Assembly (NCBI GenBank): GCA_973895155.1
Contig: OZ316894.1
Coordinates: 26,769,240 to 26,833,239, forward strand
Length of the DNA stretch: 64,000 nt
Source of the DNA: Marsupella aquatica
Taxonomy: Eukaryota; Plantae; Marchantiophyta
Direction of reading: 5' to 3'
Shown piece by piece: positions 18,678-60,501 of this stretch (positions are counted from its first letter, which is position 1; each line of letters starts with the position of its first letter). The position numbers and the translations under genes were made by a program. The notes under the pieces are model-generated. The model was not told where the DNA came from and did not search any database. It worked only from the letters and a program-made list of their open reading frames with translations.

Positions 18678-19621
18678 CTTATGATTGAACTGAAGTGCTC
18701 TGGGCTTCCTCTGTCAGCACCGCAACCCACGATCAGATCTCGTACCAGGATAAAATCCAGGAGATTCCACGAGGTGCAATTAATTTGAAGTTATTTCTTG
18801 AGGACTATGTTTCCCAACGATCGTTCCACAGTGAATGTTCAGAAATAGATAGCAGACCGGTAAGTTCTGGAGTTCAAGTGTGCATTCCTACCTCCGTCCA
18901 AACATGTATTTTCTCGTCTCTGTTGCTCTGCTGTGATCTTTGGTAATGATAACTTGAAAAAGTTGTATTACTCCTCTTCAACTGAGAGTAACGGCTATCT
19001 GTCAAGAATGCAATGATCTTACAATAGACTACTGAAATAATTGTGAAAGGCATATCCAGGTTACTTGAGAAGCTCATTCATACTCCCGTCTTTCACTGTA
19101 ACCATAGAAAGGACAGAGGCAAGAGCCTATCGAATTGGCACTAAGGAACTTCAGCAGCAGTCACATTCGATCATTGGGTTTTGCATAGGATAGACTCTTA
19201 CGACACCTTGACAAGTGTTCATTTGTGCGTTCCCTACACTGTCCTTTCTATGCTATACACAAACCAGAATCTCAAGTTTTTTTAACCGAGATTGAAATTC
19301 ACAAATAAAGCCTGACCAGCATCTGTAGATTAGAGAATCCATTGTGATTAGACACATATGACATGAATGTGACAGCCCCCTCCCCCCACCCCACTCCCCC
19401 CCGCCCCCCGCGCCCCCCCCCCCTCTCCACCCCACCCCGCCCCGCCCTCTCTCCCTGTGTTCCTTGGAGATATAAAAATAATCATTCAAGTAAAGTCTTC
19501 ACCTCATAGCAGGAAATTCACTGAACTACAAACTACAAATGTCACACCGTGGTGTTGGAACAAGAGGTCCTATTCAAAAGTAGGTACGCATAACGTCGAA
19601 ATCGCTCTTCAGTCTCATTAC

Positions 19622-24148: not shown

Positions 24149-24156
24149 TATAAAAA
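24149..24156 (+). promoter_or_regulatory. Candidate TATA box of the family-B LTR
   Basis: TATAAAAA in a GC-rich context about 100 bp upstream of the ATG at 24257, followed by a pyrimidine-rich leader. Confidence 0.55.
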
Positions 24157-36210: not shown

Positions 36211-36256
36211 TACCTACGCTTCCGTTCTAACTTCATATCTCACGGCTTAAGAAATG

Positions 36257-36275
36257 CCCCCTCCATCTAGCGCCA
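36257..36275 (-). promoter_or_regulatory. Primer-binding site (non-Met type)
   Basis: TGGCGCTAGATGGAGGGGG, 4 nt after the 5' LTR. A TGGCG start is typical of non-chromovirus elements. The cognate tRNA was not assigned. Confidence 0.8.
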
Positions 36276-36279
36276 AAAA

Positions 36280-39200: not shown

Positions 39201-40937
39201 TTGCCGTTGTTTTTGCCGATGCCGATCTCTTTTCTTTCTCCAGTAGTTTCAGCAGACTCTGCATGCCTGGTTGCTGCATCGGCAAGTCTTCCTTCCTGGG
39301 CCTAAACACCTGCTCGATCGTAGGACTAACAGGTGGTTGAGGCTTCTCAGCCAACGGCCTCGGCGTTGGAGCTTCCTCGGGTGCCCTTACCTGCAGGGGA
39401 AGTACCGGGGCAAAAGTCTGACCTCTGGCATACCGGCACAACAGCGGCATGTGATAGCCAAGCCGCGACACGCTCCCCATGCCGATTACCTGCTGCTCCT
39501 CCTTTAAGATCTTCTTCAATTGGTTGAGGAGGTACCCGTTGTAGTCCCGGCTTGGGTCTGGCCTTTCTGCCAGATAGACCTGTGCCTTGCCGATCTCTGC
39601 CCTCGGCAAGTTACAATGCATGGTCACCCGCAAGAAGTCGATCATCTCTCCTATGTGCGGGTTGGTGCAGGTGTTCCGGAAGAAGCCATTCTTCGTTGAT
39701 GGCCCGGGGAACGACCGGAACTCCTTGTCAGGCAAGGTCTTCCTGGTATCAACTTTGGTCTTATTGCCCATCGGCAAGCCAAACACTTCGGCAATCACCT
39801 TGGGAGTAAGATAGAAATCCTTCCCATATATCCTCGTGCAATTGGTCTCGGGTTCCCATGACCCCACGAATTCTAATAGGTCTGACTCCGGTACCTCCGG
39901 CTTCAGCCATGGTAATCTTACAAAGGCCTCCAAGCCGGATCCGGCCATGAAGCCTTGGTACTTCTTGGTCTGCATGGCCGTAAAGCATGCATCCTCCTCC
40001 CGTGCAAAATGTAGTTGCACCTCCACCGGTAGGGTTGCCGCCCAGCCCTTCCAGGTGTCATCCCTGGTTGGAATGGCCTTGATGGGATCGACCTCCTCCT
40101 CTTCGGCTTCTCCCTGCCTCCTGCTCTGCTGCTCGGCTGGCTTCTTTGGTGCCGCCGACCTCGTTCTTTTTGCCGGGGTGGCTTCATCGTTGACGGCTCC
40201 CTTCCTCTATCTCTGCTGCCGTGGAGGTTTCTCCTAGCACCGTTGCCCGGGTCCACCTTTCCGTGCTACCCTTTAATTCCCAGTGTATGTCGTTGCAGTT
40301 CTTGATGGCCTCTCGGATGCCGACGACGCTGTCTTTGCAAAACAGAAGATCGTCGAGTTGATTGGAAGTAGGCGTCCACAGGAACTCGTCCTTGATGAGT
40401 TTGCCTCCTAAGAAAGCCGTCTTCTGCAGCTCCCACAATCGAGCGAGCTCCTGCCGTTCTCGAGCTGCCCTTTCTGACTCCTCGTCCTCGTAAGTCTTGA
40501 TGTACTCAGTTGCCCGTTCGAACAGGCATCCCCAGAAATGTGCCGCTTGATTGACGTTGCTCATACCCTCCTTAGGTTGATCGTCGGTATCTACTCTCTC
40601 CCCGAGTGCTTGCCTAAGCAGCTGACAGTAGTTGGCCTCCCGTAGTCGTCTGCCTAGTTCGTGCTCGCAAATGAGCCACCATCTCCTGCAAGCGCTCCTT
40701 ACCCCTCTCCTCTGCCGGTCCTTCTTCCCGTTGATCCTTCCTAGCCGCCGACGCTTAACGCGCCCTAACCCTAATCGGTTTTTCACCCTCAGCCTTACCT
40801 CCGGCCTCTGCCCGGGTTCCATGGTTGCCCCTAATTGTTTATATTTTCCTTGTTTTGTCACTATACTAAGGTGTTCCTAGGGTGCCTTCCTGCTTTACCC
40901 ACTTAACCGGCCGAGTGATTCCTGTCTAGGCATCACA
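36280..40937 (-). repeat. 5' LTR of the family-A element (4658 bp)
   Basis: Direct repeat of 25377-30058, followed by the PBS and gag. Confidence 0.96.
37201..40822 (-). pseudogene. LTR-encoded protein, 5' LTR copy
   Basis: Carries the same 2-bp deletion (near 40209) plus an in-frame TAG at 38767-38769. Confidence 0.88.
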
Positions 40938-43900
40938 GTCCCTCACGGAAGAACGGCTCAAGATGATCTTTCGGTTACCCGAAGGGGACCACCGAGTCGA
41001 ATCACGGGCCCCCGGGGGCAAGGGAGCCAAGTACCAATCCTCGAGCTTTCCCTCAGAGGGAGCAGTGGACAACGGGTTCGTGATGAGGACCTGCCTCATC
41101 CCCGAGATAGCCGAGCGACTAGAGTTCCAAAGGTACGCCCTCCACATGATGGAACCCCGGGGGGAGATCTTCGCCGCCCAGGTTATCCAGGTCGAGAACT
41201 ATCGACCTAGGAAGTGGGCGTCGTACTTTGTTAAGAAATTCCATGAAGAGATGGAGCGGCGAAGGAAGACGTTGTACATTGGAGGGAAGGCGTATTTCAC
41301 TGGCCACATTGAGATCATTCTTGAGTGGTACGCTCGGTTGGATCGACGAACCCTTCCCCGTGTCAACATTACAAGGCTGGTCCCAGCTAGGTGGGTTTTC
41401 CCGGCCTTGGAGAGACGGCCCCAACCCGAGGCCCGAAGTCCAGCGGACACGCAGGCTTCATCCACCCCACCCCCACAAGTAGCTGTAGTCGTGACCGAGG
41501 AGGTACCGGATGGGTCGGTTATCGCAACCGTAGATGCAATCCAACAAGTTGGGCTAAGTACAGAAGTCGGTACAGCGGAGGTCTTACTCGAGCCCGGGTC
41601 TCCCAAAGACCCACCGGTGGCTGTTTTGGAGAACCAGACTTTGCTGCAGGAGGACACTCCAGCCCCTTCCAACACGTCCCCAGGGCTGGATGTCACTGCC
41701 CCGGCCCCCGCGCGTGTTGACGTCTGCGCGTGTCCAACTCTGGACAGGCACAACCTGGACCACCCGGAACTCTTTGTACCGGATATATTTCTGAACGGGC
41801 TTCTAGGAGATTTCTCTCATCAAATTGCCCGGGATACCGGGGAGTTCATGGCCCGGAAGGTAGCCTGTTTCTTCAATCAGGAGTTGGTTGCCGCAGTAAA
41901 AGCAGGTCGGGCTCAATCAGAGGCCCTTCAGAGGATAGAGCGGTACCGAGTGGAGTCCGTATACTTAAAGAATGAAGTTGCAGCTCAAGAGGCTGAGCTT
42001 CTGCAACTACGACCCAAAGTTGCAGCCGCCGACGAGTTGTTAGCAAAGGTGCACACCCTTACCGCCCTAGCGAGCAGGCCAAAGCTGGAAACGAGGCCGA
42101 GATTTCACGGCTCCGGTCCCAGATTGACAGTTTGAAGAATCAAATTGTCATCTGGCAGAAAGACCTGGAGGAGGCCGAAGAACGGGCCCAGCGGGACACT
42201 GCGGAGATAGCCACGCTACAAGCCGAAGTAGCGCAGCTTCAAACCAAAGCCGGGAAGCAGGACCAGTTGGTGGGCAAGCTGACGAGCGATGCCCAGCAGC
42301 TGGAAGAGGCATGCTAGGAGGCAGCGGAGGAGACGGACGCGGCGAAGCGAGAGAACAAATCTCTGCTAGACCAAGTCCAGCTCCTCAAGTCGGACAACGC
42401 CAGACTTCGCAAGCAGTGGGATGACCGTTCCCACTCGGACGGCTCTGGCAAGCGTGCCAGACATTAGCGGCGGAGAGGAATAGAATAGGGTTAGGAATAG
42501 CTAAGTCAGGCTATTGGGACAGGCACCTGCCTTAGTTATAGCAGCACTGCCATGTTGTCCAGCCTGCGTAGATTAGGATCTTCTAATAAGACACAGCCGT
42601 TTTTTGGCCTGACAGTCAGCTTAGTTAGGACCTTAGTCAGCAAATCTTCGGGCGGGAGGACACTCTGTTTCTTGGCCCTCAGTATTTAGTGCACCCCTCG
42701 GTAGAAGCAAGGGGGGGTTTTTAGTCTCAGAGTTGGACATCCGTGGTATGTGCGGGGAGTCCCGACCTCTGGGAGTGAAAGAGTACCAAGGGGAGGGGGG
42801 TAGGACTAAGCTCGCCGAGCGAGTGTGGAGCCGGGCTCCGTTGTAGTGTACACCCTCGGCCTTGAACCTGTTCATTCCGGAGCTGTCGGGTCAACCAAGT
42901 GTACACTTATGTCCCCTGTGTAGTAAAATCCTTTCCCATTACTTCCTTCGTGTAAATCGAGATTGTATGCTTGTGCGTGTGTATGCGTGTATGAATCTCG
43001 TGTATAGGTGACAACGCCGGGCCGAACGCACTCCTCGAGTCGTGCACGAGGTGCAGCTTGCGAGTATGTGGTTGCGAGCACGGGTTGAGGACCTGTATCA
43101 TTGAATCCGGATCAAAGGCGGACAACACAAAGGTTTAGAAGTCCTTAGGCCGGGGTCGATCCTGCTATCGACTAAGGTACGTTCCGGCGGCGGAACACAA
43201 ACCATACCTAGGAGGTGTCTGTATCTAACAATATGCGCACTTAGCGCTAATTTACATGAATTAGGTGCATTACGTTCTTCCCTCCCTGCCCGAACCCTCA
43301 TATTTACGAAGGATGTGCCCGTTTAAAGCTGAAGCCCGAGTTAAGGCCAAGGCTGATGACATGACAATAGGATTTCCCTAACTCGGCCTCCTTCTGCTCA
43401 AGGGCTCCGCGGAGATCCTCGAGCTCCCCCTTCAGCGCCCTCTCCTTCCTCTGTGTCTCCGCCATGGCCCAATTGTTGGTTTCTCTGTGGGCCTCCTCTG
43501 CGTCCTTCAGCTCCCACTTCCATTTCTCCTTTTCCTTGACCGCGTCGGCCAACTCCCCTTGGGTCCGAGTCAGTTTATCTTTGATAATCTGATTATCAGA
43601 TTGAGCGGTATCCAATTAGCCTTGCATGATGTTGAGCTCATGCCACTTAATCCGCAGCTCATCTTGGGCTTTCTTGGCCGCTTTCAAGTCTTTTGCCTTG
43701 GCTTCCTTCTCCCTAAGCCGTCGGATGACCTCGTCTTTCTTCCTCCTCTCCAAAGCCACCGCTTCTTCCAATCGGTTTTTTTCCAACATCTCCCTCTGGA
43801 AAAAGGGTCCCTGCTCCAACTCCTCCCCAAAGATGTTGAGCGCAAGTTCCCCACACATCTTCCCGTACTCCATGGCTCTGTCTTGCGTATAGGTGGAGTG

Positions 43901-46900
43901 AGTAGTAGTCATTGGCATCACCCATCGCGGCCTTTCTTCCTAAGCCGCCTTTTGGATCTCTTCTATCATGATTGGAGGGCTGCTTCATCTTTCTGCAAGC
44001 CGTCGGATGTCCTCTGGCCATTCTCTCCTATGTAAATCCTTCTCCTTGGCCAGGGCTACCTTCTCTTCTTCCGTGAGTCGCTCCTGAAACTCCTGTGCCA
44101 TCTATTTTATCTCGTCAAATCTTGGGGGAGCAACATCTGGTGGGGGAGACTTGGGGCTGGTCTGCTGGGTGGGGTCCCCTCAAAATACTCTAGGAAGCGT
44201 GGGGATAAAACGGCCATAGGTCCTTACTCCTGGGACATGATGTTCCGACCTGTAGCCGGAGTCGTCATTGCCGTAGTCCTCCACCACCTCCTCCCCGGCT
44301 TGGACTACCGGCTCCCCCCGTTCTTCTCCTGATCTTGCTGCAAACGCGGCCTCCTGCCAAACACAACTCATGAGTCCTGGTTCCTCCTTCGGCTTCCAGG
44401 CTGTCCTCTCCTTCTGTTTATCGTGACCAGGAGCTTTGGGCTGCTCTCCCTCGACTTCTGGACTTGCGGCTCCCACATACATTCGAACCCCCGACTCATG
44501 TTCCGACCTCCTTCTTTCCTTGGCTCCGGTAAAGGGGTATTCCCTTGTGAGTTTGCTTAGGCCTACTTCCTAAGCAGTGTCCTATACCGGTGCCGTTGCC
44601 ATCGCAGCCTTCTTTTCCTTCTCCAGCAATTTCAGAAGATTTTGCATGCTTGGTTGCTGCATCGGCAAGTCTTCCGTCCTTGTCCTAAACACTTGCTCGA
44701 TTGTAGGACTGCCGGGCTGGTTGGGTTTCTCTACTGCCAGCCTCTAGTCCAGAACCTCCTCTGGTGCCCTTGCCTACAGGGGAAGTACTGGGGCAAAGAT
44801 CTGACTCCGGGCATACCGGCACAACAGCGGCATGTGATAGCCAAGTCGGGACACGCTTCCCTTGCCGATCACCTATTGTTCCTCCTTCAAGATCTTCTTC
44901 AGTTGGGTGAGGAGTTACCCGTTGTAGTCCCGGCTTGGGTCTGGTCTCTCCGCTAGGTAGACTTGTGCCTTGCTGATCTCTGGCCTAGGTAGGTTGCAGT
45001 GCATGGTTACCCACAAGAAATTGATCATCTCCCCAATGTGTGGGTTGGTGCAGGTGTTCCGGAAGAAGCCATTCTTTGTTGATGGCCCTAGGAATGACCA
45101 AAACTCCTTGTCTAGCAAGGTCTTCCTGGTATCTACTTTGGTCTTATTGCCCATCGGCAAGCCAAACACTTCAACAATCACCTGGGGAGTGAGATAGAAA
45201 TCCTTCCCATACAATTTGTCTCGGGATCCCATGATCCCACAAATTCTAATAAGTCAAAATCCGGCACCTCCAGCTTCAGCCATGGTAATTTCATGAAGGC
45301 TTCCAAGCCGGATCCGGCCACGAAGCCCTGGTACTTCCGAGTCTGCATAGCCGTAAAGCATGCATCCTCCTCGTGCAAAGTGTAATTGCACTTCCTCAGG
45401 GAGGGTTGCCGCCCAGCCCCTCCAGGTGTCATCCCTTGTTGGAACGGTATTAATGGGGTCGACCTCCTCCTCTTCCGCTTCCCCCTACCTCCTGCTTCCT
45501 TGCTCGGCTGGCTTCCTTGGTGCCGCCGACCTCATTCTCTTTGTAGGGGTGGCCTCTTTGTTTTTGGACCCTTTCCTCTTCATGGTGGCTACTGTGGATG
45601 TTTCTCTGAGTATGGTTGCCTTCATCCACACCTCCGTGCTACCCTTTAGCTCCCAGTGTATGTCGTTGCAGCGGTTGATGGCTTCCTAGATGCCGACTGT
45701 GATGCCTAGCCAGGAATCACTAGCCCGGTTTAATGGTAAAGCAGGAGTGTACCTTGGAAACACCTTAGTATAGGAACAAAACAAGGAAAATATAAACAAT
45801 TAAGGGTGACTATGGAACCCGGGCCGAGGCTGGAAGTAAGGATGCGGGGGGAGAGAACACGATTAGGGTTAGGGCGCGCTAAGCGTTGGCGGCTAGGGGT
45901 GACCAACAGGAGGGAAGACCTTAGGAGGAGAGGGGTAAGGACCGCTCACGAGGAATAGTGGCTCATTTGCAAGAACGAACTGGGCAGACGACTATGGGAG
46001 GCCAATCGCTGTCAGCTGCTTAGGCAAGCACTTGGGGTGGGAACAGATACCAACGATCGACTCAAGGAGGGTATGAGCAACGTCAATCAAACGGCACATT
46101 TTTGGGGATGCCTATTCAAACGGGCAGGTGAGTACATCAGGACTTACCAGGACGAGGAATCGGAGAGAGTAGCTCGAGAACGACAGGAACTCGCTCGGCT
46201 CTGGGAACTACAGAAGACGGCTTTCTTAGGAGGAGAACTTATCAAAGCCAAGTTCTTGTGGACTCCTACTGCCAATCAGCTTGACGACCTTCTGTTTTGC
46301 AAAAACAGAATCGTCGGCATCCGGGAAGCCATCAATCGCTGCAGCGACCTACACTGGGAGTTGAAGTGTAACACGGACGGGTGGACGAAGGCAACCTTGC
46401 TAGGAGAAACATCCACGGCAGCCGAGATGAAGAGGAAAGAAAACAACAACGAAGAGGCCACCCCGGCAAAAAGAACGAGGTCGGCGGCACCTAGGAAGCC
46501 AGCAGCGCAGCAGAGCGGGACTAGGGGAGAAGCCGAGGAGGAAGAGGTCGATCCCATCAATGCCATTCCAACAAACGATGACACCTGGAAAGGCTGGACG
46601 GCGACCCTACCGGAGGAAGTGCAATTACACTTTGCACGAGAGGAGGATGCATGCTTTATGGCCATGCAGACCAAGAAGTACCAAGGCTTCATGGCCAGAT
46701 CCGGCTTGGAAGCCTTCGTAAGATTACCATGGCTAAAGCCGGAGGTGTCGGACTCAAACTTATTAGAATTCGTGGGATCATGGGAACTCGAGACCAATTC
46801 CACGAGGGTGTATGGGAAGGATTTCTATCTCACTCCCCGGGTGATTGCCGAGGTGTTTGGCTTGCCGATAGGTAATAAGACCAAGGTTGATACCAGGAAG

Positions 46901-48253
46901 ACCTTACCTGACAAGGAGTTCCGGTCATTCCCAGGACCATCAACGAAGAATGGCTTCTTCCGGAACACTTGCACCAACCCGCACATCGGAGAGATGATCG
47001 ATTTCTTGCGGGTGATCATGCACTGTAACTTGCCAAGGGCAGAGATCGGCAAGGCTCAGGTCTACCTGGCAGAAAGGCCAGACCCAAGCCGGGATTACAA
47101 CGGGTACCTCCTCAACCAACTGAAGAAGATCTTGAAGGAGGAACAGCAGGTGATCGGCGTGGGAAGCGTGTCCTGGCTTGGCTATCACATGCCGCTGTTG
47201 TGCCGGTATGCCAGAAGTCAAATCTTTGCCCCAGTGTTTCCCCTATCGGCAAGGGCACCGGAGGAGGTTCCGGAGCAGAGGCCGGCACCAGAGAAGCCCA
47301 ACCAACCAGACAATTTGATGATCGAGTAGGTGTTTTGGACAAGGAAAGAAGACGTGCCGATGCAGCAACCAGGCATGCAAAGTCTGTTGAACTTACTGGA
47401 GAAGGAAAGGAGAACGGTTCCGGCAACGGCAACGGCAAGGATACAGGACGATGCCCCAGAGGTCGGCTTAAGCTGACTCAGAGGGGAAGATCCCTTTACC
47501 GGAGCCAAGGAGAGAAGGAGGCCAGAACACAAGCAGGGAGTGCGGATGTATGTGGGAGCCTCAAGCCCCGAATCAAAGGCAGAGTAGCCTAAGGCTCCTT
47601 TCCGCGAAGAGCAGAAGGAGACGACAGCCTGGAAACCAGAGGAACCAGAGGCCGTTTTCACGACTGGACCAGGGGAACAAGGGGAGAAGGCGGGAGTCCA
47701 AGTAGTGGAGGAGGCGGGAGAGGACTACAACAATGATAACTCCGGCTATGGGTCGGATCATCATGTTCCAGGAGTAAGGACCTGTGGCCGATTTATCCCC
47801 ACGCTTCCAAGAGTAGTTTGAGGGGACCCCAACCAGCAGAGTAGCCCGAGTCTCCCCCACCAGAGATTTCTCCCCCGAGCTTTGACGGCATAAAGCAGAC
47901 GGCACAAGAATTTCAGGAGCGACTTAGGGAAGAAGAGAAAGCAGCCCTGGCTAGGGAGAAGGATTTACCAAGAGGAGATTGGCCGAAGGACATCAGGCGG
48001 CTTGCCGAAAAAAGAAGCAACCCTCTTGCCACCATAGAAGAAATCCGCAAGACGGCTTGGGAGCAGAGGCCGCGGTGGGTAATGCCGATGACTTCTAGTT
48101 ACTCCACCTATGCTAAGGATAGAGCCATGGAGTATGGGGAGATGTGTGGGGAACTGGCGTGTGATGCCTAGACAGGAATCACTCGGCCGGTTAGGTGGGT
48201 AAAGCAGGAAGGCACCCTAGGAACACCTTAGTATAGTGACAAAACAAGGAAAA

Positions 48254-48259
48254 TATAAA
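48254..48259 (+). promoter_or_regulatory. Candidate TATA box near the 5' end of the family-A LTR
   Basis: AAATATAAAC about 95 bp from the LTR start, conserved in the older copy at about 45788-45797. Confidence 0.45.
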
Positions 48260-48274
48260 CAATTAGGGGCAACC

Positions 48275-51200
48275 ATGGAACCCGGGCAGAGGCCGGAGGT
48301 AAGGCTGAGGGTGAAAACCCGATTAGGGTTAGGGCGCGTTAAGCGTCGGCGGCTAGGAAGGATCAACGGGAAGAAGGACCGGCAGAGGAGAGGGGTAAGG
48401 AGCGCTTGCAGGAGATGGTGGCTCATTTGCGAGCACGAACTAGGCAGACGACTACGGGAGGCCAACTACTGTCAGCTGCTTAGGCAAGCACTCGGGGAGA
48501 GAGTAGATACCGACGATCAACCTAAGGAGGGTATGAGCAACGTCAATCAAGCGGCACATTTCTGGGGATGCCTGTTCGAACGGGCAACTGAGTACATCAA
48601 GACTTACGAGGACGAGGAGTCAGAAAGGGCAGCTCGAGAACGGCAGGAGCTCGCTCGATTGTGGGAGCTGCAGAAGACGGCTTTCTTAGGAGGCGAACTC
48701 ATCAAGGACGAGTTCCTGTGGACGCCTACTTCCAATCAACTCGACGATCTTCTGTTTTGCAAAGACAGCGTCGTCGGCATCCGAGAGGCCATCAAGAACT
48801 GCAACGACATACACTGGGAATTAAAGGGTAGCACGGAAAGGTGGACCCGGGCAACGGTGCTAGGAGAAACCTCCACGACAGCAGAGATGAAGAGGAAGGG
48901 AGCCGTCAACGATGAAGCCACCCCGGCAAAAAGAACGAGGTCGGCGGCACCAAAGAAGCCAGCCGAGCAGCAGAGCAGGAGGCAGGGAGAAGCCGAAGAG
49001 GAGGAGGTCGATCCCATCAAGGCCATTCCAACCAGGGATGACACCTGGAAGGGCTGGGCGGCAACCCTACCGGTGGAGGTGCAACTACATTTTGCACGGG
49101 AGGAGGATGCATGCTTTACGGCCATGCAGACCAAGAAGTACCAAGGCTTCATGGCCGGATCCGGCTTGGAGGCCTTTGTAAGATTACCATGGCTGAAGCC
49201 GGAGGTACCGGAGTCAGACCTATTAGAATTCGTGGGGTCATGGGAACCCGAGACCAATTGCACGAGGATATATGGGAAGGATTTCTATCTTACTCCCAAG
49301 GTGATTGCCGAAGTGTTTGGCTTGCCGATGGGCAATAAGACCAAAGTTGATACCAGGAAGACCTTGCCTGACAAGGAGTTCCGGTCGTTCCCCGGGCCAT
49401 CAACGAAGAATGGCTTCTTCCGGAACACCTGCACCAACCCGCACATAGGAGAGATGATCGACTTCTTGCGGGTGACCATGCATTGTAACTTGCCGAGGGC
49501 AGAGATCGGCAAGGCACAGGTCTATCTGGCAGAAAGGCCAGACCCAAGCCGGGACTACAACGGGTACCTCCTCAACCAATTGAAGAAGATCTTAAAGGAG
49601 GAGCAGCAGGTAATCGGCATGGGGAGCGTGTCGCGGCTTGGCTATCACATGCTGCTGTTGTGCCGGTATGCCAGAGGTCAGACTTTTGCCCCGGTACTTC
49701 CCCTGCAGGTAAGGGCACCCGAGGAAGCTCCAACGCCGAGGCCGTTGGCTGAGAAGCCTCAACCACCTGTTAGTCCTACGATCGAGCAGGTGTTTAGGCC
49801 CAGGAAGGAAGACTTGCCGATGCAGCAACCAGGCATGCAGAGTCTGCTGAAACTACTGGAGAAAGAAAAGAGATCGGCATCGGCAAAAACAACGGCAACG
49901 GCAACAATGCAGGACACTACTACAGAGGTAGGCCTACACCGGCTCACAAGAGAAAACCCCTTTGCTGGAGACAAGGAGAGAATCAGGCCGGAATCCAAGC
50001 CAGGTGTTCGAATGTACGTGGGAACCTCAAGCTCCAAATCTGAGGCAGAATTTCCTGAAGCTCCTACCAACGAAGAGGAGAGGGAGAAGCCGGACGTCCA
50101 AGAGGTAGAGGAGGCAGTGGAGGACTGCAGCCATGATAATTCCGGCTATGGGTCGGACCATCACGTTCCAGGAGTAAGGACCTGTGGCCGGTTTGTCCCC
50201 ACACTTCCAAGGGTAGTGCGAGGGGACCCCAACCAGCAGAGTAGCCCTGAGTCTCCCCCACCAGATGTTGCTCCCCCGAGCTTCGACGGCATAAAACAGA
50301 CGGTGCAGGAATTTCAGGAGCGAATCAAGCAGGAGGAAGAGGCCGCCCTGGCTAAGGAAAAGGATTTACCAGGAGGAGATTGGCCGGAGGACATCAGGCG
50401 GCTAGCCGAAAAAGGAAGCAAACCTCTAGCCACGATTGAAGAGATCCGTAGGACGGCTTGGGAGCAGAGGCCACGATGGGCGATGCCGATCACTTCTACT
50501 TACTCCACCTACGCTAAGAATAGAGCCATGGAGTATGGTGAGATGTGTGGGGAACTTGCGCTCGGCATCTTTGGAGAGGAGTTGGAGGTAGGACCCTTTT
50601 TCCATAGGGAGCAGTTGGAGAAGCACCAATTAGAAGAAGCGGTGGCTTTAGAGAGAAGCAAGAAGGATGAGGTCATTCGGCGGCTTAGGAGGATGGAAGC
50701 CGAGATTGAAGATCTAAGGGCGGCCAAGAAAGCCCAAGATGAACTGCGGATTAAATGACATGAGCTGAACATCATGCAGGGGCAGTTGGACGCCGCGCAG
50801 GCTGATAATCAGAATATCAAGGATAAACTGACTCAGACGCAGGAAGAGTTGGCCGACACGATCAAAGAAAGGGAAAAGTGGAAGCAAGAGCTGAAGAATA
50901 CAGAGGAGGCCCACATAACAGCCAACAGCCGGGCCATGGCGGAGACCCAAAGAAAGGAATGGGCGTTGAAAGGGGAGCTCGAGAAAATCCGCGGAGCCCT
51001 TGAGCAGAAGGAGGTCGAGTTAGGGAAATCCTATCAAGGGATTATGGCGCTGCAGCAGGAGCTTGCGTCCCTGACGGCCAGCTTCAAGGCCGACCTAAGG
51101 GAGAAGGACGAGATGCTCGAACAGACTTACGCCAAGATGAACCAGATGGAGTCTGTCATCATTGCAGAGCTCGACAAGGAGCTAAGAGCAACCCACGAGG

Positions 51201-51898
51201 AGAAGGCTACCTTGAAGAAGGAATTGGAGGAAGCCCACAGGGAGCAGGAGGAGGCCAAAAACGAGCTGGAGGGGGCACGTAAGGACCTGGATGAAACCCA
51301 AGAGGAGTTGGAGGAAATCACGAGGAAGATGGAGAACCTACAGCGGCGGGCCGACAACCAAACAGAGCGGCTGAAGAAACAAGCCGCAGTATTTAAATGC
51401 TTAGCTGCAGCAGGTCCATCTCCTGTTGGGACAAACCAGTTACCAGGGGTGGTAATTGCCGAAGGACAAGCCGCGCCACCTGCACCAGTGCCGGAAGTAA
51501 GTGGGAAGGGGAAGGGACCAGCTGCCGAGCCACCAATGAAGAAGAAGCGGAAACCTTCAGGGTCAAGGAGTAATACGACTTCACAGGCCGTGGTGATCAA
51601 GGAGGTAGACCCAGCACCGACCCCAGACAGGGTCACGGCTAAGGATCCAACTACCCTAGGGGAAGGGGAAGCCGAAGCCGTGGGAGTGGCTGAAGCCGAA
51701 GCCGTGGGAGTGGCTGAGGCCGAAGCCGTGGGTATTGCCGAGGCCGGTGTCGAGGCTGAAGCCGAAGGTGGACCCAGTCAGGCCGATGGAGAGTTGACTC
51801 GGTCAAGGGCAGGTAATCTGTCAGTAGGCGGGCCAACGGCAGTGGCTGAGGAGGAAGTGTTGGGGGCGTCCATTGAGGATCCACCACCGGTGTCGTGA
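48275..51898 (+). pseudogene. LTR-encoded protein, best-preserved copy (1207 codons from ATG 48275, or 1121 from ATG 48533)
   Basis: A single reading frame broken only by CGA>TGA at 50756-50758; the two other young copies have CGA at this codon. Confidence 0.9.
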
Positions 51899-54526
51899 CG
51901 GTGCAAGGGCGCCGTTCCTTTTAGGGAGGGCGGACGTGGAGGGAGGAGGCGTGAGTGGGCAGGGCGGGCACGGATCTCCACGTTTAGGATTAGGATCAGA
52001 ACCAGGAGCGGCCCTGACACTTAGCTTAGTGGGATTGCGGTCCCACTGGTAGGAGCAACACTTGTGCTCCTGCCTTGCTGTACATAGGTAGATTCGGGCA
52101 AGTAGATTACTGTTAAGTAGATTAGGCTTACGATGCAAAGAAGGGCGGATCCACTACCAGGATAAGTACCTGGGCAGCGGGGAGCTCAGGGCCTCTTCTT
52201 TAGCAAGTTTTTAGTTTGCACCAGCCGGGCTGGGATCAAGTAGTACGAGAAGCTCTCGGTTAGTCATACAATGACCCTTGTGTATATTCATGTTTCCTCA
52301 TGCCTAAGAGCTGAATAGAGTTGGCCTCACGGCTTAGTTCGCAGAACTTGTGTATGAGATGTACTGTTTGTATGGCAAGTGCATGGTATGACTCAGTCAG
52401 AATGAGTCATTTTGCTATTTGTGTGTCGCATTAACTTGTGTGAAGAGTGCCCACATCAACAGAAGGAAGGAAAGTAAGCAGGGGAGTGAGAGTTGGATGT
52501 GTCGAGCTGAGAGAGGTCTTAGCGGCTTAACCAAGCCTATTGGGGATCATTCCGGCGGCGGAATCCAAACATACCTAACAAGACGGAGGGGAAGACAGGG
52601 GAAGACAGGGGAAGGCCTATATTAGGCCGGCTACGTATCTCATGACCCGATGAAGGATCTGTCCAGTATATGTGTGTAAAATGTTAATAGTAGTAGTAGA
52701 AGGTTAGCAGCGTCCCATGCCGCTAAGCCGCGGAAACGGCCTCGCCGAGCACGAAACCTGCGGGAATCGGCTTGAGCTGGGGGGTTTCTTGGGTTTAGGG
52801 AGCCATGGGACGCACCACATGGCGCTCAGCATCTTTGGGGAGGAGTTGGAGCAAGGACCCTTTTTCCAAAGGGAGATGTTGGAAAAGCACCGATTAGAAG
52901 AAGCGGTGGCTTTGGAGAGGAGCAAGAAGGACGAGGTTATCCGGCGGCTTAAGGAGAAGGAAGCCGAGATGGAAATCCTGCAGGTGGCCAAGAAAGCCCA
53001 AGATGAACTACGGATTAAGCGGCATGAGCTAAACATCATGCAGGGGCAGTTGGATACCGCTCAGTCTGACAATCAGATTATCAAAGATAAACTGACTCGG
53101 ACCCAAGGAGAGTTGGCCGGCGCAGTCAAGGAAAGAGAGAAATGGAAGCGGGAGCTAAGGGATGCAGAGGAGGCCCACTTAGCAACCAACAATCGGGCCA
53201 TGGCGGAGAACCATAGAAAAGAGAGGGCGTTGAAAGGAGAGCTCGAAGATATCCGCGGAGCCCTTGAGCATAAGGAAGCAGAGTTAAGGAAATCCTATCA
53301 AGGGTTTATTGCGCTGCAGTAGGAGCTTGCGTCCCTGACGGCCAGCTTCAAGGCCGACCTGCGTGAAAAGGACAACCAGCTCGACCAGACTTATGCCAAG
53401 ATGAATAAAATGGAGTCTGTGGTCGTAGCAGAGCTCGACAAGGAGCTAAGAGCAACCCAGGAGGAGAGGGCTACCTTAAGGAGGGAATTGGAGGAAGCCA
53501 ATAAGGAGCTGGAGGAGGCGCGCAAGGACCTGGACGAGACCCAGGAGGAGTTGGAGGAAATCACGAGAAAGATGGAGAACCTACAACGGCGGGCCGACAA
53601 CCAAATAGAGCGGCTGAAGACACAAGCCGCAGTATTTAAATGCTTGGCTTCATCAGGTCCAACTCCAATTGGGGGAACCCAATTACCAGGGGTAGTATTG
53701 GCCGCAGGACAAGCCAAAACACTCACCCCGGTGCCGAAGGTAGGTGGCAAGGGGAAGGAACTGGCTGTCAAAATAGGGAAGAAGAAGAAGCGGAAACCTT
53801 CTAGGTCTGGGAGTTATACGGCTTCTCAAGCCGAGGGGACCGAGAGGATAAACCCGACATCAATCTCCAGCATCAGAACGGCGGTGGATCCACCAGTCCT
53901 AGGAAGTGGAGATGGACCGGATCCTCCGCTAGAGCATGTCGGGGAGGCCGTAGCCGTATCGGAGGCCGTAGCCGTATCGGAGGCCGTAGCCGTATCGGAG
54001 GCCGGGACCGATGATGAAGCCAAAGCCGAGGGTGGACCCAGTCATGCCGATGAAGAGTTGACTCGGTCAAGGGCAGGTAATCTGTCAGTGGACGGACCAA
54101 CGGTAGTGGCTGCGGAGGAAACGTTGGGGGCATCCATTGAGAACCAGCCACCGGTGTCGTGACGGTGTAAGGGCGCCGTCCCTTTTAGGGAGGGCGGACG
54201 TGGAGGTAGGAGGCGTGAGTGGGCAAGACGGGCGCTGATCTCCAAGTTTAGATTTAGGATCAGGACCAGGAGACGGCCCTGACACTTAGATTAGTGAGAT
54301 TTTGGATCCGCGGGTGAGGCACTAGAAGGAAATCGGGATTTTATCACTACCTAATTCACTTGTTTCAGAGTGATAACGGACAATTTACAACTCAATGGTT
54401 TGAGTGCACTAATGTCAGTCGCTTTAGACAACTAGTCGTATTGAGCATGAAGTCGTTTATAACAAGTACTCAAAATGTATGAGTGGTTTATGTCACCGTC
54501 GGTTTCAAACCCAACGGTCTTAAATA

Positions 54527-55055
54527 ACTAGAAAAATAACAGTTATTTAAATTTTGCCCAAAACAACTACTATGGTGACTTTTTTTGACAAATGATACTT
54601 AGACATGTGGCGGTCTCCACAATCATTGGGGGTGACATTTGCCAAAAGTCAATTGTGGTCAATGCACCTTGAACCTCAAACAACTTCTTTCATGACTAGA
54701 ATTCAAGTAGAAACTATATAGCCCTTGCCACTATATGACTAGATTTTGAGTCTTAAAGATACTTTGTGTCAAACTTTTAATACTAATTATATGACTAGAA
54801 AAATAACAATTATTAAATTTTGCCCAAAACTACTATGGTGACTTTTTTTGACAAATGATACCTAAACATGTGGAGGTCTCCACAATCATTGGGGGTGACA
54901 ATTGCCAAAAGTCAATTATGGTCAATGCACCCTGAACCTCAAATAACTTCTTTCGTGACTAGAATTCAAGTAGAAACTATATAGCCCTTGCCACTATATG
55001 ACTAGATTTTGAGTCTTAAAGATACTTTGTGTTAACTTTTAATACTAGTTATATG
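54527..55055. repeat. Two-copy tandem repeat of about 265 bp in the CACTA subterminal region
   Basis: Units start ACTAGAAAAATAAC at 54527 and 54794 and are highly similar. Confidence 0.9.
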
Positions 55056-55769
55056 ACTAGAATTGAAATCATAATCAAATTACATTTACAACTTGTAGTG
55101 TCACTAAATTTAAAGTGATAACATGACATATTAGACACATGTAGTACTTGCAGCTATATAACTAAGTTTGATGTAATAAAGATATTATTTTACAATTTAG
55201 TTTTTGATATATATCTGAAATTGAAGTAGTAATTGTAAAGCTTTTGTTATTTGTTATATATGACTGTATTTACAGACCTATCATTCAGTCCATTATTACT
55301 TGCTATATGACTACATCTTAAGTGTTATAGATTGCTACGTTACGACTTTAAAATGGGTGATGAACATCATATCTTTAATAACTATAGTTGCAGTAGTATG
55401 GCCATGGTCTAGTATTGATCACTTCAATTGTAGTGATTTGGGTGTACTATAGAACTTGAATGATAGTACATTGGAATGTCGAATCACTAGATGTAGAGTC
55501 ATTAGTTTCGAAGTTCTAAACCCTAAATAGCAATAGCAAAAACCTCAAATGTCTCACATACACATTCAAATAAATTTGAGAAATGACACAATCTTAGTAA
55601 GTCATCATTTCAAACACCAACAAAATTCCAGAGTGATACACATCTGGGAATCCAAAAACTGAGAACCATAGTTGCACAATAGTATCCATGCTACCTATAT
55701 GGGAACCTACATACTTCTTCAATCACATGGATTCTCTATTGCAAGCTCTACTCCTCAATTACTAATCCT

Positions 55770-58737
55770 ACTTCCTCATTAACTTCTGCCTCCACAAAAA
55801 TGGGTGCCCCTTCACATGTTTGAGGGCTACCAAGCCTTCTGGGTGCTTTTCTTGGAGAGGTGCATCTCCATTCAAAATAGAAACAGCTTTGACAATCAAG
55901 AAGCCAGTAGGAACTGGGTTGTCATAATATCAATCAAGTCCACATACTCCATCGATTCTGGCAATAGCAATCACCTACTAATCCACTGGTGATTTCAATT
56001 TCACCATGTCTCCTACTTTAAACTGTCACACATCAACAACATAACACAGCCATTTCATTACTTAGACTTGTTAATGACAAGTTACAGCAAATAAACGAAT
56101 AGGACATGTATTGAAAGCAATCACTTGCTTTTGCTCACCTTCAAGACAAAAGGTGAAGGGATCGACTTTGAAAACTTTGTAACAATGGCTTCTTCAGATG
56201 ACTTTGTCAAAACAACTTCAGGTGTCAAAGCTTCTATTATCTCCTGCAAAATAGATTAGGGTGAGACAACTTACATAAGCATACCCTACCAGGTTCACAT
56301 TACAAATTCATGGGATAATGAACACATTAATAGTACAAAGTTTAGGGTTTAGATGGTATTCCAACCTTATCTTTGCCTGCTTGATCATGCTGCGCAGGCG
56401 AACTGTATACCACCTCTGTTTCTTCATTGATCTCTTGCTTCACAATCACTGGGTCATAATTGTATTCCACAGCAGCATTGAGATCAATCCCCTGATCATC
56501 TTCAACTGCCCATTAACATTTCAAGACATTAGAAAATATTCACTAATCCAAGTCATGCATGCTTGATTACACATACTTTAACTGCCCTCTATAAAGAACA
56601 TACCTTCTTTGGTCAAGTTCACCAAAAAGTCTAGTTTCACAGCTGAAGTACTACGGCCTGAATGGCTTTTCGGAACTGAACTCATTCGTGGGCATTGAAG
56701 ACTGTCCCGGCCCAACTGGGACAGTTCTGGTTTCTTCCACATCTTGACTTAGGCTAGGTTTTGTCAAAACAGTTAACATTTTTTGAAACCCAACACTCAT
56801 CCCTGTACTTATTGCATTCACAATTGTACTCAACATACGCTCATCACGTCCTTCCTCGTCTCCCATCATAGCCCTGGAACCTGGAGTCTGCAACCATTGA
56901 ACAATCATACAAAAGTTAGTGGATATCACCTAGACTTGGCAATTTGGAAATCAAAAATTGGACTTGTGAACTAATACTCACAATTGACTTTCTGCCTCTC
57001 CGATGAGATGGTGTGGTCTGTCCTGTGACAGATCTCACACTTGATACTCCAAATCTATCATCTTTTGAGCGTAGCTCAGATAGAGGTGGACTTTCCCCTC
57101 TTTTTCTCTTCTGAGCAATGAAACCAAACAATACATATTAGAATGAAACTTCTTGCTTCTTTGCATACCAATTGCTAAAACAAAGAAAGACACATGTTGT
57201 AAGCCTACTTGTTGTTTACAAACATTCATAATAACTGTAAATGAATCTTGTATACTTACAAAGTCAGACTCCTTCCCACGGTAGCCACCTCGTCCAACCC
57301 TTGATGGATTAATGACTTTAGATCTTGCATACTTCATCTTGTCAATGCTAGACATCCCTTCTAGAGACAGCCACCACTCACACAATGCCTTCCAATGTTC
57401 AGGCTTCACATTCTCAGGGGGCTTCTTGTCCAAGCGTCTTCCACCTTCCTGAAAATGTTTGTGGAGTCTTGCTCGCTGTGCTTTCATTACTGCTGAACAA
57501 TGAGACCTGAACTTCTTCATTGACAGAGTCCCCTGTACATATTCCCAATCGTTCTCCAACACAGCATAAACATGAAGAAGAACCCCTGAGTCTTGCTTCT
57601 TAATCTCATGGATAGAAGGATTCAGTTTACCCATACACACAGCACGAAGATCATCTCCCCAATGTGCCCGATATGGATCACTAGGATCAACATCATTGTT
57701 CCAAATCTACACACAATGCATCATAAGAGACCAATAACAGAGGACAAACAATAAATCACAAGCATGATCTTTCACAAGCAACATACAGTGATTGCAGCTT
57801 TCTTCAAGCCCAACTTGCGACGCTCGCTTGTGTTCTCTTCCCATTGTTTCTTTGCAGCACAAGATGATTGTCGTACGTGTGTCTGTTCTGATCTTTCTGT
57901 GACAATTCCATCATCCAGATCACGAGTAGATGCTCTAGGCAAGGGTGTCACTACCACAACCAACCAAAGAGATTCTGTTAGCAAGTCAAACATTAATGTA
58001 ACTTGTGACAATCAATCTGCAACTGTGAGAATCTTTGAACTCAGGATTCACTTGGCAAGTCAAAAACAAGTTCATGGCAAGTGAGGTAATGAATAAATTA
58101 CTTACACACACTCACTTCCTTTGTCCTAGGATCCACATAATATTTAAGCCCTGACTTTCGGGGAGCCTGAGGATAATAGTGTGCACATTCAAGTAATTAG
58201 TAACAGTAGCACCAGATTGAGATATACGGAAATTGGACAATTAATGCAATTAGCTTCAATTGAAGTAAAAAATGACAATGAGTCTTCTCCTACCTTACGT
58301 GGCTCTTCAACACCATCTGATTCAACGCCATCACTTAAACCTGCCCCATAGTTTGTGTCAGCTGACTGTTCAGACCCATCACTCCCATTGTTATCACTCT
58401 CCATGATTTTCTCCAAGTGCCTGCCAAGTAATCGTGAACTCCTACGCTTTGCTACAGACGGTTGATTCTGTTCAGTCTTCTTTGACAACTTAGAAAGACG
58501 CTTGCGCCTTGACTCTCCCTGTAAACTGCAATCACCCTGACAATGTCATGAGTGTGAACCATTAGTAATAAAGTCAAGGCATAAATTCAAAACTATATAG
58601 GGATAGAGTACATACTTTAAATCACTTGCAGCAGTTCCTACGAACCGGTCAAGTATAGCTTTGTTGGCTGCTATGTTCCTATTCCTCTGTGCCTCATAGG
58701 CATTCTCAGAACCTTTCACCCCAGACCGATCATGCAT
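55770..58737 (-). CDS. CACTA second gene (TnpA-like), multi-exon, boundaries approximate
   Basis: An exon reads KPPENVKPEHWKALCEWW...KMKYARSKVINPSRVGRGGY, as in En/Spm TnpA-type proteins. An N-terminal exon reads YEAQRNRNIAANKAIL, and GT/AG introns are visible. Confidence 0.65.
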
Positions 58738-58811
58738 TTCAATTCAAAACTGCATAAAAAAACACTCTCACCAAAGAGCAATCAGTACTTCCTACCCCAA
58801 GAGGCACATTC

Positions 58812-59742
58812 TCACTCTTCATCTGAATCTTCTTCATCTTCCCAGACATCATCATCATCACTATCACTTCTTGTCAACATTGCCATCTCCTGAAAAACTA
58901 CAATTTCTCCTTCATCCAAGGACACTCGTCTGTTAGCTGCTGCAACAAGCTCAGCCTCAACAGCCTCATGACGATCCACAAGATCATTAAACTCAAGGTC
59001 ATTTATACCCTCAACAACTCATCGAGACCTCCCTTCCTTATGGAGAACATGTCTCCAAGAGGCCCCGGCTGTGTTTGGGTAGAAGAAAACCTGCTCAATC
59101 TGACTGGGCAAGACATAATCTAATTTCTCAACTGAGGGATAAGGCATATTAAAATTAGCAAGCCATAGGCCAGTCTCATCATGTTTCATTGATGGATTAG
59201 ACCTCTCCTCTTCCCACTTAGACCGCACCCACTTTGCCTTCAAGATTATGGCTAGTTCAGAATGTAACAGAGGTCCATAGTCAAGCACAAGTATCTGTGT
59301 CATAACCCCCACATATGTAAGCTTGGCCAAATTCACCCCAGTTTCTTCCCTGATCTGCTCATGGAAAGTTGTGGCCACCCCTGAATCGAATGTAGCATAT
59401 CCTTGACAATCAGTGTCCCTGAGAGTGGACATCTCACGCCATTCACCATTCCTATCTTTGCAGCACATCACTCTATAATGGTTCCCAAAAGCCTTCATTG
59501 AATTGTAAGACAAAGCCTTCTGGCTTGGTGGAAAAGAAATTGCAGTCAACAACAACTTGTCCTCATTGTCATCCAGGTTAGCCTTGTGTATTGTATCCCT
59601 GAACCACACTCCAAAAGGAATGGAAGCAAATTCAGCAGGACAGACCATTGCTTGACGTCTGCCTCGTCGTCGTTCTGCATTATTCTGTCTTCCAACAGCT
59701 TCCCTTTCTATCCTTTGCTCCTCCTCTTCTGACTCATATAAC
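58812..59742 (-). pseudogene. C-terminal exon of the CACTA transposase (TnpD, DUF4216-like region)
   Basis: FGVWFRD, FGNHYRV, TFDSGV, YVGVMTQILVLDYG, LKAKWV, YVLPSQIEQVFF and WRHVL. There is a premature TGA at 59019-59021 before an acidic tail. Confidence 0.82.
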
Positions 59743-59860
59743 CTTCCAAGCAAGCAAAGAACAATGTCAGATATCATAAAAGAAATACTGTCGTATTGTG
59801 AAAGCGCATTTAGAACTACATTACTGAACACTGAGACAGCCATAAACAAAATGATGTAGT

Positions 59861-60501
59861 CACTAGTAGAAACCGGGGGGTATTTAGACCCCATTAAACG
59901 ACTATTCAGTACCGTATAGGACTTGGAAACGACTGGGAAGGACTCTAGTCCTTTATAGGACTGCGAGTCGTATGTTTTGTTACTATAATCAACTGAGTCC
60001 TTTATAGAACTGGTTTATAAGTCGTTTAATAGACTGGATTTTCAGTCTATTTTAGTCTTTGTGTGGGTAGCTTTGGTGAGTCGTTTTTAGTCTTTTATGG
60101 GCTGCGATGATGAGTCGTTGGGAACGACTAAAAAGGTTATGGAGGGTAGTCTTTAAATATACTTTGTGGGGTATGTATAAGTCTTTTATGTCAACTGGAT
60201 ATGAGTGATGAAGACCCCACTATACTACTTGGAATGAACCCACTCTTGTGCACAAATAACATATTGCATTCATGTTTTATTGTGTACTTGGAATGAACTC
60301 ACTCTATAAGTTCACCATTCATCATGTTAACATTAGAATACATAGTTTCAGAAAGCCATCTTCTATACCATGTACACTAATATGAATTCACAGATTCAAA
60401 CTTCATAGACTACAAAGAAGGTCACAAAGTATTCCTCTATACCATACACACTAATACTGAAATGATAAAATAGATTCAAGTATCATAGACAATCACCATA
60501 G
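59861..60501. mobile_element. End of a second CACTA element, inserted in a transposase intron
   Basis: CACTAGTAGAAA terminus followed by AACGACT/AGTCGTT-type subterminal repeats in both orientations. The other end is not in the window. Confidence 0.7.

Follow-up and report, generated by a model that had tools for sequence, protein, structure and literature searches.

A solo LTR in Marsupella aquatica holds a broken accessory gene of a Ty3/gypsy family, with a predicted VANC/PMD-like core

We analyzed a window of 64,000 nucleotides of Marsupella aquatica DNA (contig OZ316894.1), in which the segment 48160–52819 is best explained as a solo long terminal repeat (LTR) of a Ty3/gypsy family with a selected accessory gene. 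The product of this gene would be VANC/PMD-like and act in trans, and the present copy is likely decaying; we assign this reading as a whole a probability of roughly 0.55. The segment has the anatomy of an LTR, and the gene lies wholly within the LTR in two families, was under purifying selection between subfamilies, and is broken in all copies in the window.

The young solo LTR of this family (family A) occupies 4,660 bp on the forward strand and has the termini TG..CA. The target-site duplication TGGCG was found on its left (48155–48159) and right (52820–52824) sides, which confirmed the duplication-bounded solo LTR proposed in a first-pass annotation of this DNA. Because both flanks are made up of an older LTR copy of this family that runs on to either side, the segment stands as a solo LTR, with no primer-binding site (PBS), polypurine tract (PPT), or internal sequence beside it. 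It was 99.5–99.6% identical to both LTRs of a full-length element at 25377–40937, with 17 and 22 substitutions relative to the 5' and 3' LTR, respectively, over 4,658 aligned bases. LTR ends and a duplication in the 4–6 bp range are thereby combined with a match to the LTR pair of an element that has gag, reverse transcriptase (RT), RNase H (RH), integrase, PBS, and PPT.

The full-length element (15.6 kb, 5-bp duplication, reverse strand) sits inside the ORF of a second family (family B), and its 5' LTR (36280–40937) and 3' LTR (25377–30058) differ by 0.26%. On the same strand, the PBS TGGCGCTAGA (36266–36275) comes after a 4-T spacer, and the same loose end was found in three of four runs; the window contains no tRNA genes. 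Gag, a zinc knuckle, RT, RH, and integrase are encoded at 30047–36213, the pol stop being within the 3' LTR and the PPT (30059–30071) within the last pol codons. In both this element and its relative L060 from a metagenome, the PPT is found at the very end of pol, ahead of the ORF. In the 5' LTR, the ORF is broken by a frameshift (codon 205) and by a stop (codon 686); the copy in the 3' LTR shares the frameshift. As this frameshift occurs in the two LTRs of a young element, transposition apparently does not require an intact gene in cis.

Pfam searches of the three internal ORFs found no match to an additional RNase H or a chromodomain. The closest named relatives of the element were from Calypogeia, and its RT–RH grouped with Calypogeia proteins with a support of 1.0 (FastTree, 35 pieces, midpoint root) and stood separate from loci that carry ATHILA ORF-1 and Transposase_32. 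The element thus falls outside the Athila clade, and the additional RNase H that marks the Tat clade was not found in it. The available text of PMC6317226 and PMC13468544 describes Phygy and the liverwort 'Tat Z2' as clades without this domain.

The host of the solo LTR is an older family A LTR on the forward strand (part one, 45698–48159, ~84–87% identical; part two, truncated, 52820–54301) with six stops in all. An oldest family A LTR on the reverse strand, with ~81% identity, consists of an inner part with its 5' end missing (43367–45697) and a 3' part (22083–23789), and shows a total of 13 stops along with several frameshifts. Four insertions within the window hit LTRs of families A and B that carry the ORF.

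The first-pass annotation had also claimed a like arrangement in family B, which stood for the layout and the domain and failed for an intact copy. The family B solo LTR (4,011 bp, forward strand, ATAGG duplication) is in two parts. Part one (23790–25376) holds TATAAAAAG at 24149, a pyrimidine-rich leader, and an ORF that starts at 24257 and has a stop at codon 177; part two (40943–43366) holds the remainder of the ORF, a frameshift near 42070, a stop at 42315, a T/G-rich stretch, and the CA end. The profile of the family A core domain matched both parts (E 1e-14 and 2e-25, respectively). The copy is dead, with the codon 177 stop, the 15.6-kb insertion, the frameshift, and a further stop. The claim that LTR–LTR recombination spares the accessory gene was upheld, flanks included, by two families in the window. 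In L060 the core domain lies downstream of the LTR start; the profile matched it at E 1e-4 in the ORF-level search, and its 5.2-kb contig has one LTR end only. A six-frame search of 80 metagenome loci, L060 included, gave no profile match.

The solo LTR contains a single reading frame at 48275–51898 (forward strand, 1,207 codons) with a lone in-frame TGA at 50756–50758 (codon 828). The change is a transition at a CpG site; both sister LTRs have a sense codon there, as did 97–100% of the contig depth in four of four runs, so the stop is rare among other copies, and a whole ORF with one CpG nonsense change was correctly described. Codons 1–86 (48275–48532) are likely a 5' leader rather than coding: their dN/dS was 1.26, and an older copy has a stop at codon 48. 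As these codons show no constraint, the constrained gene likely begins at the ATG at 48533 and extends to 51898 (codons 87–1207), broken in this copy. The dN/dS by region was 0.11–0.30 over codons 87–1040 relative to two older copies and 0.39–0.62 in the tail beyond codon 1040, versus 0.90–1.27 in shifted frames. Compared with the nearer old copy, codons 87–1207 had 235 synonymous and 286 non-synonymous differences (neutral share 0.33, P=6e-9), and 38 of the 60 differences in the core domain were synonymous (P=1.5e-6). The accessory ORF is a real gene of family A that was under purifying selection in the transposing lineage. Its conserved core (codons 247–471, 49013–49687) had a dN/dS of 0.11–0.14 and is free of breaks in the window. 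Codons 771–1040 (50585–51394, dN/dS 0.20–0.27) are a likely coiled coil, with weak ATG16 and Filament Pfam matches below the cut-off, and a lysine-rich KKKRK at residue 1089 would fit nuclear import. Downstream of the ORF, the LTR continues for 921 bp (51899–52819), in agreement with the 0.9 kb described previously, and includes a T/G-rich stretch (~52260–52460) that is the putative 3'-end region.

In the window, six of the six gene-bearing LTRs were disrupted, three of them at less than 0.5% divergence. The changes on the young copies, mostly CG/CHG transitions, comprised 11 non-synonymous or nonsense versus 4–5 synonymous; these counts are small and weak constraint is still possible (Fisher P 0.19–0.32 versus the between-subfamily ratio). 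The recent changes fit neutral decay, which is one half of the outcome that the first-pass annotation had named as counting against its proposal that solo LTRs could supply the protein. Nonsense changes make up about 3–5% of coding substitutions under neutral loss. The solo copy itself is an ordinary young pseudogene in a retrotransposon nest. Protein supply in trans from solo LTRs is plausible, the more so because the predicted fold resembles a class that acts in trans (VANC). In run X5, the summed contig depth was ~34–83 thousand for the LTR and 6–11 thousand for gag-pol, which is not a copy number.

The model of the core (pLDDT 82, pTM 0.81) was compared with 48,161 chains. VANC21 (9lnk_A) ranked first with Z 8.6, rmsd 4.2, and 210 of 231 residues aligned, the next chain having Z 3.2; a Z near 8 can, for this tool, be a common arrangement among helical proteins. 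Foldseek also placed VANC21 first (TM 0.46, next 0.14; E 0.53), and the sequence identity was 8–13%. The core is accordingly predicted to resemble the VANC21/DUF1985/plant mobile domain (PMD) fold, with moderate scores. A control model of an Athila Transposase_32 (pLDDT 42, too low for a verdict) gave no Z of 5 or more and no VANC21 row, and the viral structure library gave no match at E≤0.001; the top entry there, an unnamed protein of 805 aa, had E 0.03 and rmsd 18.5. Pfam gave no family for the core at E≤10 and none at the curated cut-off for the first 827 residues of the accessory protein, and PMD, DUF1985, Transposase_32, and ATHILA ORF-1 were absent from 23 of its 23 relatives. A PDB sequence search with the core profile returned two chance matches only. 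Profile–profile comparison aligned a helix-hairpin-helix motif of the accessory ORF, at the same place, to all three Athila-side ORF types; these alignments were weak (probability 1–11%, P 0.003–0.06; two controls, P 0.14 and 0.22).

Among 1.84 billion representatives, 23 relatives of the accessory protein were found at E≤0.001, covering the core and codons 91–246; four of the ten looked up were named Calypogeia fissa proteins. Word-indexed searches with the core matched none of 411 candidates and none of 3,166, the latter result being uninformative because only proteins of 1,303–3,720 aa were covered. None of 61 pattern matches in viral contigs was a relative, and the 80 metagenome loci contained no close one (best 53%).

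The TATA-like box described in the first-pass annotation, a putative promoter of the gene, was present (TATAAA at 48254–48259, forward strand), but it did not exceed chance expectation (P=0.57 over the whole LTR and 0.075 over the first 400 nt). It is the sole one in the solo LTR, is retained at 45791 in the older copy, and lies only ~20 nt upstream of the first ATG of the frame. The 'complete transcription unit' claimed for solo LTRs would be made up of a promoter and a poly(A) site that we place from composition. Composition alone favours the order promoter–ORF–terminator, which is R-like, over an ORF in U3. For an R region as long as about 4 kb, the strong-stop DNA would have to be unusually long. 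If the ORF instead lies in U3, full-length elements would be the main source of its transcripts, through the 3' LTR or through splicing from a downstream promoter as in MMTV sag, and the solo LTRs would be silent by-products from the outset. The length of such an R region, the chance-level TATA-like box, a second TATA-like site at 52618, and the CG/CHG transitions, which are typical of methylated DNA, all speak for U3, as do several sag promoters outside the U3 start in the excerpted text of PMC4667437. The 52618 site, however, is located past the T/G-rich stretch, and a search of the oldest copy did not find it; in family B the TATAAAAAG is clear and a leader of 67% pyrimidine directly precedes the ATG, with L060 likewise; we regard a U3 location as possible but doubtful. 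It is next to inconceivable that the 4.7-kb repeat is a tandem or assembly duplicate of the 3' internal region and a short LTR. A precedent exists at the Athila-side locus L002, where a TATA-like box and an ORF of 1,226 codons lie between pol and PPT; its 6.2-kb repeat was considered as a second ORF-bearing LTR and rejected because the PPT follows the ORF, the true LTR being 1.4 kb. In family A, both 4.7-kb repeats have TG after the PPT or duplication and CA before the PBS or duplication, loose contig ends occur at the LTR start and end in other runs, and the duplicate reading is refuted by two independent insertions that have target-site duplications at the same ends.

With regard to function, the protein might be a different accessory factor, for integration targeting or particle/RNA trafficking, that oligomerises through the coiled coil. 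The evidence from the fold is moderate, no VANC-like target motif was found in the non-coding LTR parts and leader, and a targeting factor could explain the four insertions into ORF-bearing LTRs. Insertions nested in repeat-rich regions are, however, commonplace in the absence of targeting, and the one structural neighbour that stands out clearly is an anti-silencing protein bound to DNA. The functions of plant extra ORFs are an open question (PMC7264820), which leaves room for such a factor, although we consider it unlikely. Distinctly improbable is the strong form of the earlier proposal, namely that solo LTRs whose ORF is intact serve as an enduring source of the protein, maintained by selection, or have undergone domestication in the host. 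The codon 828 stop is missing from most copies in other runs, the excess of LTR over gag-pol depth in X5 is a weak hint of many LTR-only copies, and gypsy elements, which encode PMD-A, may be the source of PMD genes in hosts (PMC5418596, in part). Against this stand the six broken ORFs of six, the 6 and 13 stops in the old copies, and, in the parts available of PMC4667437, orthologous solo sag copies without constraint.

In the reading that we prefer, that of a selected accessory gene carried in the LTR, the protein would likely bind DNA or chromatin in trans and keep the family expressed, possibly opposing silencing as VANC does. The gene would have its own promoter near the 5' end of the LTR and end in the T/G-rich stretch ~400 nt beyond its stop, and, with promoter and end so placed, a fresh solo LTR may be an expressible unit until methylation or mutation. 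Selection would act on transposing copies; solo copies could give protein briefly and then drift. The layout may have arisen when plus-strand priming shifted upstream of an Athila-like 3' accessory gene and drew it into the LTR, since the L002 PPT follows the ORF whereas the PPT of family A and L060 ends pol, with the ORF after it.

A gene in the LTR has its dose doubled per element and survives solo-LTR formation; surveys confined to the sequence between LTRs would overlook it, and annotation would count solo copies among orphan host genes. A VANC/PMD-like fold in a bryophyte retrotransposon would give this extra ORF a testable function, and it bears on the origin of VANC and PMD because VANC has been described as specific to dicots and the survey of PMD-A covered angiosperms. 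There might even be a bryophyte gypsy clade with a VANC-like gene between LTR promoter and terminator, in which LTR–LTR recombination, the principal route by which the host deletes retrotransposons, leaves thousands of stand-alone cassettes that demethylate and reactivate the family in trans and are raw material for host PMD-like genes, a scenario that we think rather unlikely.

For DNA transposons, anti-silencing proteins with sequence specificity have been documented (VANC), and VANC21 of VANDAL21 in Arabidopsis (PDB 9lnk/9lnj), the best structural neighbour of the core, is likewise a transposon accessory protein. Excerpts of PMC13547354 also report a coiled coil in VANC21, as is likely here, and, together with excerpts of bioRxiv 10.1101/2024.09.27.615353, the same fold for VANC DUF1985 and the MAIN/MAIL PMD; VANC transgenes led to demethylation of endogenous copies (PMC5735166, consulted portion). 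A common fold does not show function, because VANC and the PMD proteins of hosts differ in their roles. VANC comes from Mutator-like DNA transposons of dicots, whereas the present gene is in a bryophyte retrotransposon LTR. VANC also binds repeated motifs; the non-coding LTR parts and leader of family A contained no repeated short motif (top 7-, 8-, and 9-mer counts 4, 3, and 2, within the range of 200 shuffles).

According to the available parts of PMC6317226, PMC7264820, and PMC11728184, the extra ORFs carried by Ty3/gypsy elements of plants other than chromoviruses include the Ogre PMD (PF10536), Retand Transposase_28, Athila ORF-1 (PF03078), and Transposase_32 (PF20167). The family A gene resembles them as a large sense accessory ORF of a non-chromovirus element with a likely coiled coil. 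The described ORFs occupy the region between the two LTRs, upstream of gag or downstream of pol, and solo LTRs no longer have them, whereas the family A ORF is inside the LTR, occurs twice per element, has no Pfam match, and belongs to a bryophyte clade apart from Athila. Literature searches for LTR-internal ORFs in plants turned up no published case; the available text of PMC3485330, PMC7466625, PMC13468544, and PMC12885004 does not describe such ORFs, and Retrosat2 ORF0 is placed there upstream of gag-pol and is not described as LTR-internal. The closest parallel in layout is sag of MMTV-like betaretroviruses, also a gene within the LTR that is kept in solo LTRs, just as the family A ORF is wholly within the LTR and preserved in the solo LTR. 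According to the accessible part of PMC4667437, solo LTRs hold most MMTV-like sag genes, other viral genes are missing from 490 of 527 sag contigs, and orthologous copies show no dN/dS below 1. Sag belongs to an animal retrovirus and is unrelated in protein and function to the family A ORF of about 1,120 codons. Gene survival in solo LTRs is already known from MMTV-like sag; the new element is the predicted core fold with VANC21 as its first-ranked neighbour.

The copy of family A, a Ty3/gypsy family with 4.7-kb LTRs, at 48160–52819 starts with TG, ends with CA and is flanked by TGGCG on either side, and the sequence around it continues an older LTR of the same family. It is a genuine solo LTR, as the first-pass annotation had claimed. 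It differs from the 5′ and 3′ LTRs of the full-length family A element at 17 and 22, respectively, of 4,658 aligned bases. The whole ORF was found as annotated: a single frame (48275–51898) with one TGA, a CpG-type transition at codon 828. This site was sense in 97–100% of contig depth in all four runs, representing four organisms.

When dN/dS was computed for the solo ORF against two older family A LTR copies, the values were 0.24–0.25 for codons 87–246, 0.11–0.14 for the core (codons 247–471), 0.27–0.30 for codons 472–770, 0.20–0.27 for codons 771–1040 and 0.39–0.62 for the ORF tail, compared with 0.90–1.27 in shifted frames. Judged from the sequence, this ORF represents a real family A gene. 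A second region under constraint, codons 87–246 (48533–49012), has relatives of its own (proteins P0006, P0008 and P0011). Codons 1–86 gave a dN/dS of 1.26 against a single older copy, which carries a stop there; this puts the likely start of the gene at 48533 and its length at about 1,120 codons. The annotated TATA-like box is present at 48254, but its occurrence is not above chance and the first ATG follows it too closely; a start at 48533 fits better.

No Pfam family matched the ORF protein, its core or its relatives. A structure model of the core, built from 21 sequences, was confident (pLDDT 82, pTM 0.81). The sole match with Z ≥ 5 among 48,161 PDB representatives was DNA-bound VANC21 (Z 8.6, rmsd 4.2, 210 residues; next match Z 3.2), and Foldseek again ranked VANC21 first, without significance (E 0.53, probability 0.57, TM 0.46; next TM 0.14). 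In profile comparison, Transposase_32, ATHILA ORF-1 and ORFs of the type in metagenome locus L002 weakly aligned the same motif of the core. The available text of two reports gives DUF1985 of VANC and the plant mobile domain (PMD) of MAIN/MAIL the same fold (PMC13547354; bioRxiv 10.1101/2024.09.27.615353); in the accessible parts of others, PMD is a known extra-ORF domain in gypsy elements (PMC5418596, PMC6317226), and VANC, which binds short motifs, removes methylation from related copies in trans (PMC5735166). Together with this literature, the predicted fold makes a role akin to that of PMD/VANC-class chromatin factors likely for the ORF protein. It does not belong to the VANC system itself; whereas VANC binds short motifs, no over-represented motif was found in the non-coding parts of the family A LTR.

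The same arrangement had been reported for the family B solo LTR (23790–25376 + 40943–43366). This holds for the core domain (profile E 2e-25 and 1e-14 for two pieces; pairwise E 6e-12), which lies behind a clear TATA box and a pyrimidine-rich leader, but the ORF is broken by two stops, a frameshift and an insertion. At the DNA level the two families share only a hairpin-like 14-mer, TTCCGGCGGCGGAA (A, 52550–52563; B, 43182–43195), located 170–260 nt before the LTR 3′ ends and followed by similar bases (E 0.058); it is possibly a conserved cis-element. In metagenome locus L060 (2388–4978; pol identity 53%), a PPT and TG just past pol are followed by a TATA box and an ORF of 606 codons (profile match E 1e-4). 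The contig has one LTR end only, and L060 is likely a third case of an LTR-internal gene.

HMMER found 23 relatives of the ORF at E ≤ 0.001; four of the ten looked up were named Calypogeia proteins. Calypogeia fissa supplies the nearest named pol proteins (65–67% identity over the matched part, 68–70% over RT-RH). Together with a PPR-DYW gene in the window, these matches point to a leafy liverwort as the likely host. A 35-row tree grouped the full-length element with Calypogeia proteins, next to L060 and relatives without names, and separated it from Athila.

The full-length family A element (25377–40937, minus strand) has a PBS, a PPT and its own 5-bp duplication, and its two LTRs differ by 12 bases and one 24-bp repeat unit. 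Its internal region encodes only gag, zinc knuckle, RT, RNase H and integrase in Ty3/gypsy order; no additional RNase H was found in it. At 30047–30071 the pol frame reads through the PPT to a stop 12 nt inside the 3′ LTR. A gag stop at 34912–34914 is absent from the copies in sequencing run X5, so this young element is defective. It lies within the family B solo LTR (4,011 bp, ATAGG duplication), itself contained in the oldest family A LTR (22083–23789 + 43367–45697, −); a second old family A LTR (45698–54301) cuts the first and contains the young solo LTR. The four successive insertions in 22083–54301, each within the ORF of a family A or B LTR, may reflect target preference or plain heterochromatic nesting.

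Elsewhere, a full-length Ty1/copia element occupies 6296–13033; its 344-bp LTRs are 98.8% identical, it has a TCTTG duplication, and one stop lies between its gag and pol pieces. Two inverted PPR genes (1–3257, minus strand, and 15107–18713) are about 84–86% identical and have 303-bp repeats; E, E+ and DYW domains are encoded at 16131–18713. At 54520–55062 and 57035–60014 there are a 270-bp tandem duplication and ORFs, the latter looking like DNA-transposon remains; these ORFs had no Pfam match and presumably resemble CACTA-type proteins.

All six LTR ORFs in the window are broken. Besides the stop in the young solo copy and the family B lesions, the full-length element has a frameshift at codon 205 in both LTRs and a stop at codon 686 in the 5′ LTR, and the two old family A copies have 6 and 13 stops plus frameshifts. 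Among the three young LTRs, codons 87–1207 showed 11 non-synonymous or nonsense against 4–5 synonymous changes (one site unresolved), mostly CG or CHG transitions; the ratio matches the neutral share of 0.31–0.33, with counts too small to exclude weak constraint. Neutral decay of solo ORFs, which the first-pass annotation had named, along with a lack of expression, as speaking against its proposal, fits these small numbers. The broken copies and the neutral-like recent changes together assign the selection measured above to the transposing lineage. Since both LTRs of the young element share the codon 205 frameshift, the gene must already have been broken in its template, which nevertheless transposed; as far as the sequence tells, this implies that the element either does not need the ORF product in cis or receives it in trans.

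Because the accessory gene lies wholly inside the LTR, in either U3 or a very long R, each element has two copies and LTR–LTR recombination spares it, as had been proposed. Transcription would begin at a promoter near the LTR 5′ end and finish in a T/G-rich region some 400 nt downstream of the ORF, and the product would help to keep family copies expressed. The earlier suggestion that solo LTRs supply protein in trans or seed domesticated genes stands only in part: the gene survives solo-LTR formation, but the solo LTRs in the window are decaying. Fresh ones could add protein for a limited time.

The ancestor may have carried its accessory gene on the 3′ side under a promoter of its own, as L002 does, and the gene would have entered the LTR once the element began to use a PPT at the end of pol; the pol stop codon of family A now lies within the LTR. 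The 1,226-codon ORF of L002 lies between pol and the PPT, outside the LTR, in contrast with the family A gene. L002:12557–17396 is an Athila-side element; its 3′ ORF has no Pfam match, has relatives in metagenome loci L009 and L018, and shows the motif pattern of the family A core in its N-terminal part. In family A, a purine-rich tract followed by TG (51921–51960), 25–60 nt past the ORF stop and kept in an older copy, matches the PPT of L002 in position and could be what remains of a PPT, although the strand as a whole is G/A-rich.

In plant elements, extra ORFs have been described between the LTRs (PMC7264820; also the accessible part of PMC6317226), whereas the family A gene is inside the LTR. 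No LTR-internal gene from a plant turned up in our literature search, whose reach did not extend to the VANC21 structure paper or the principal survey of extra ORFs. Survival of genes in solo LTRs is already known from MMTV-like sag, which, according to the available text of PMC4667437, persists in solo LTRs as the family A gene does, its orthologous copies showing no constraint. Within this known kind of arrangement, what appears new is that the gene occupies the LTR in two or three bryophyte lineages and is predicted to encode a VANC-like fold.
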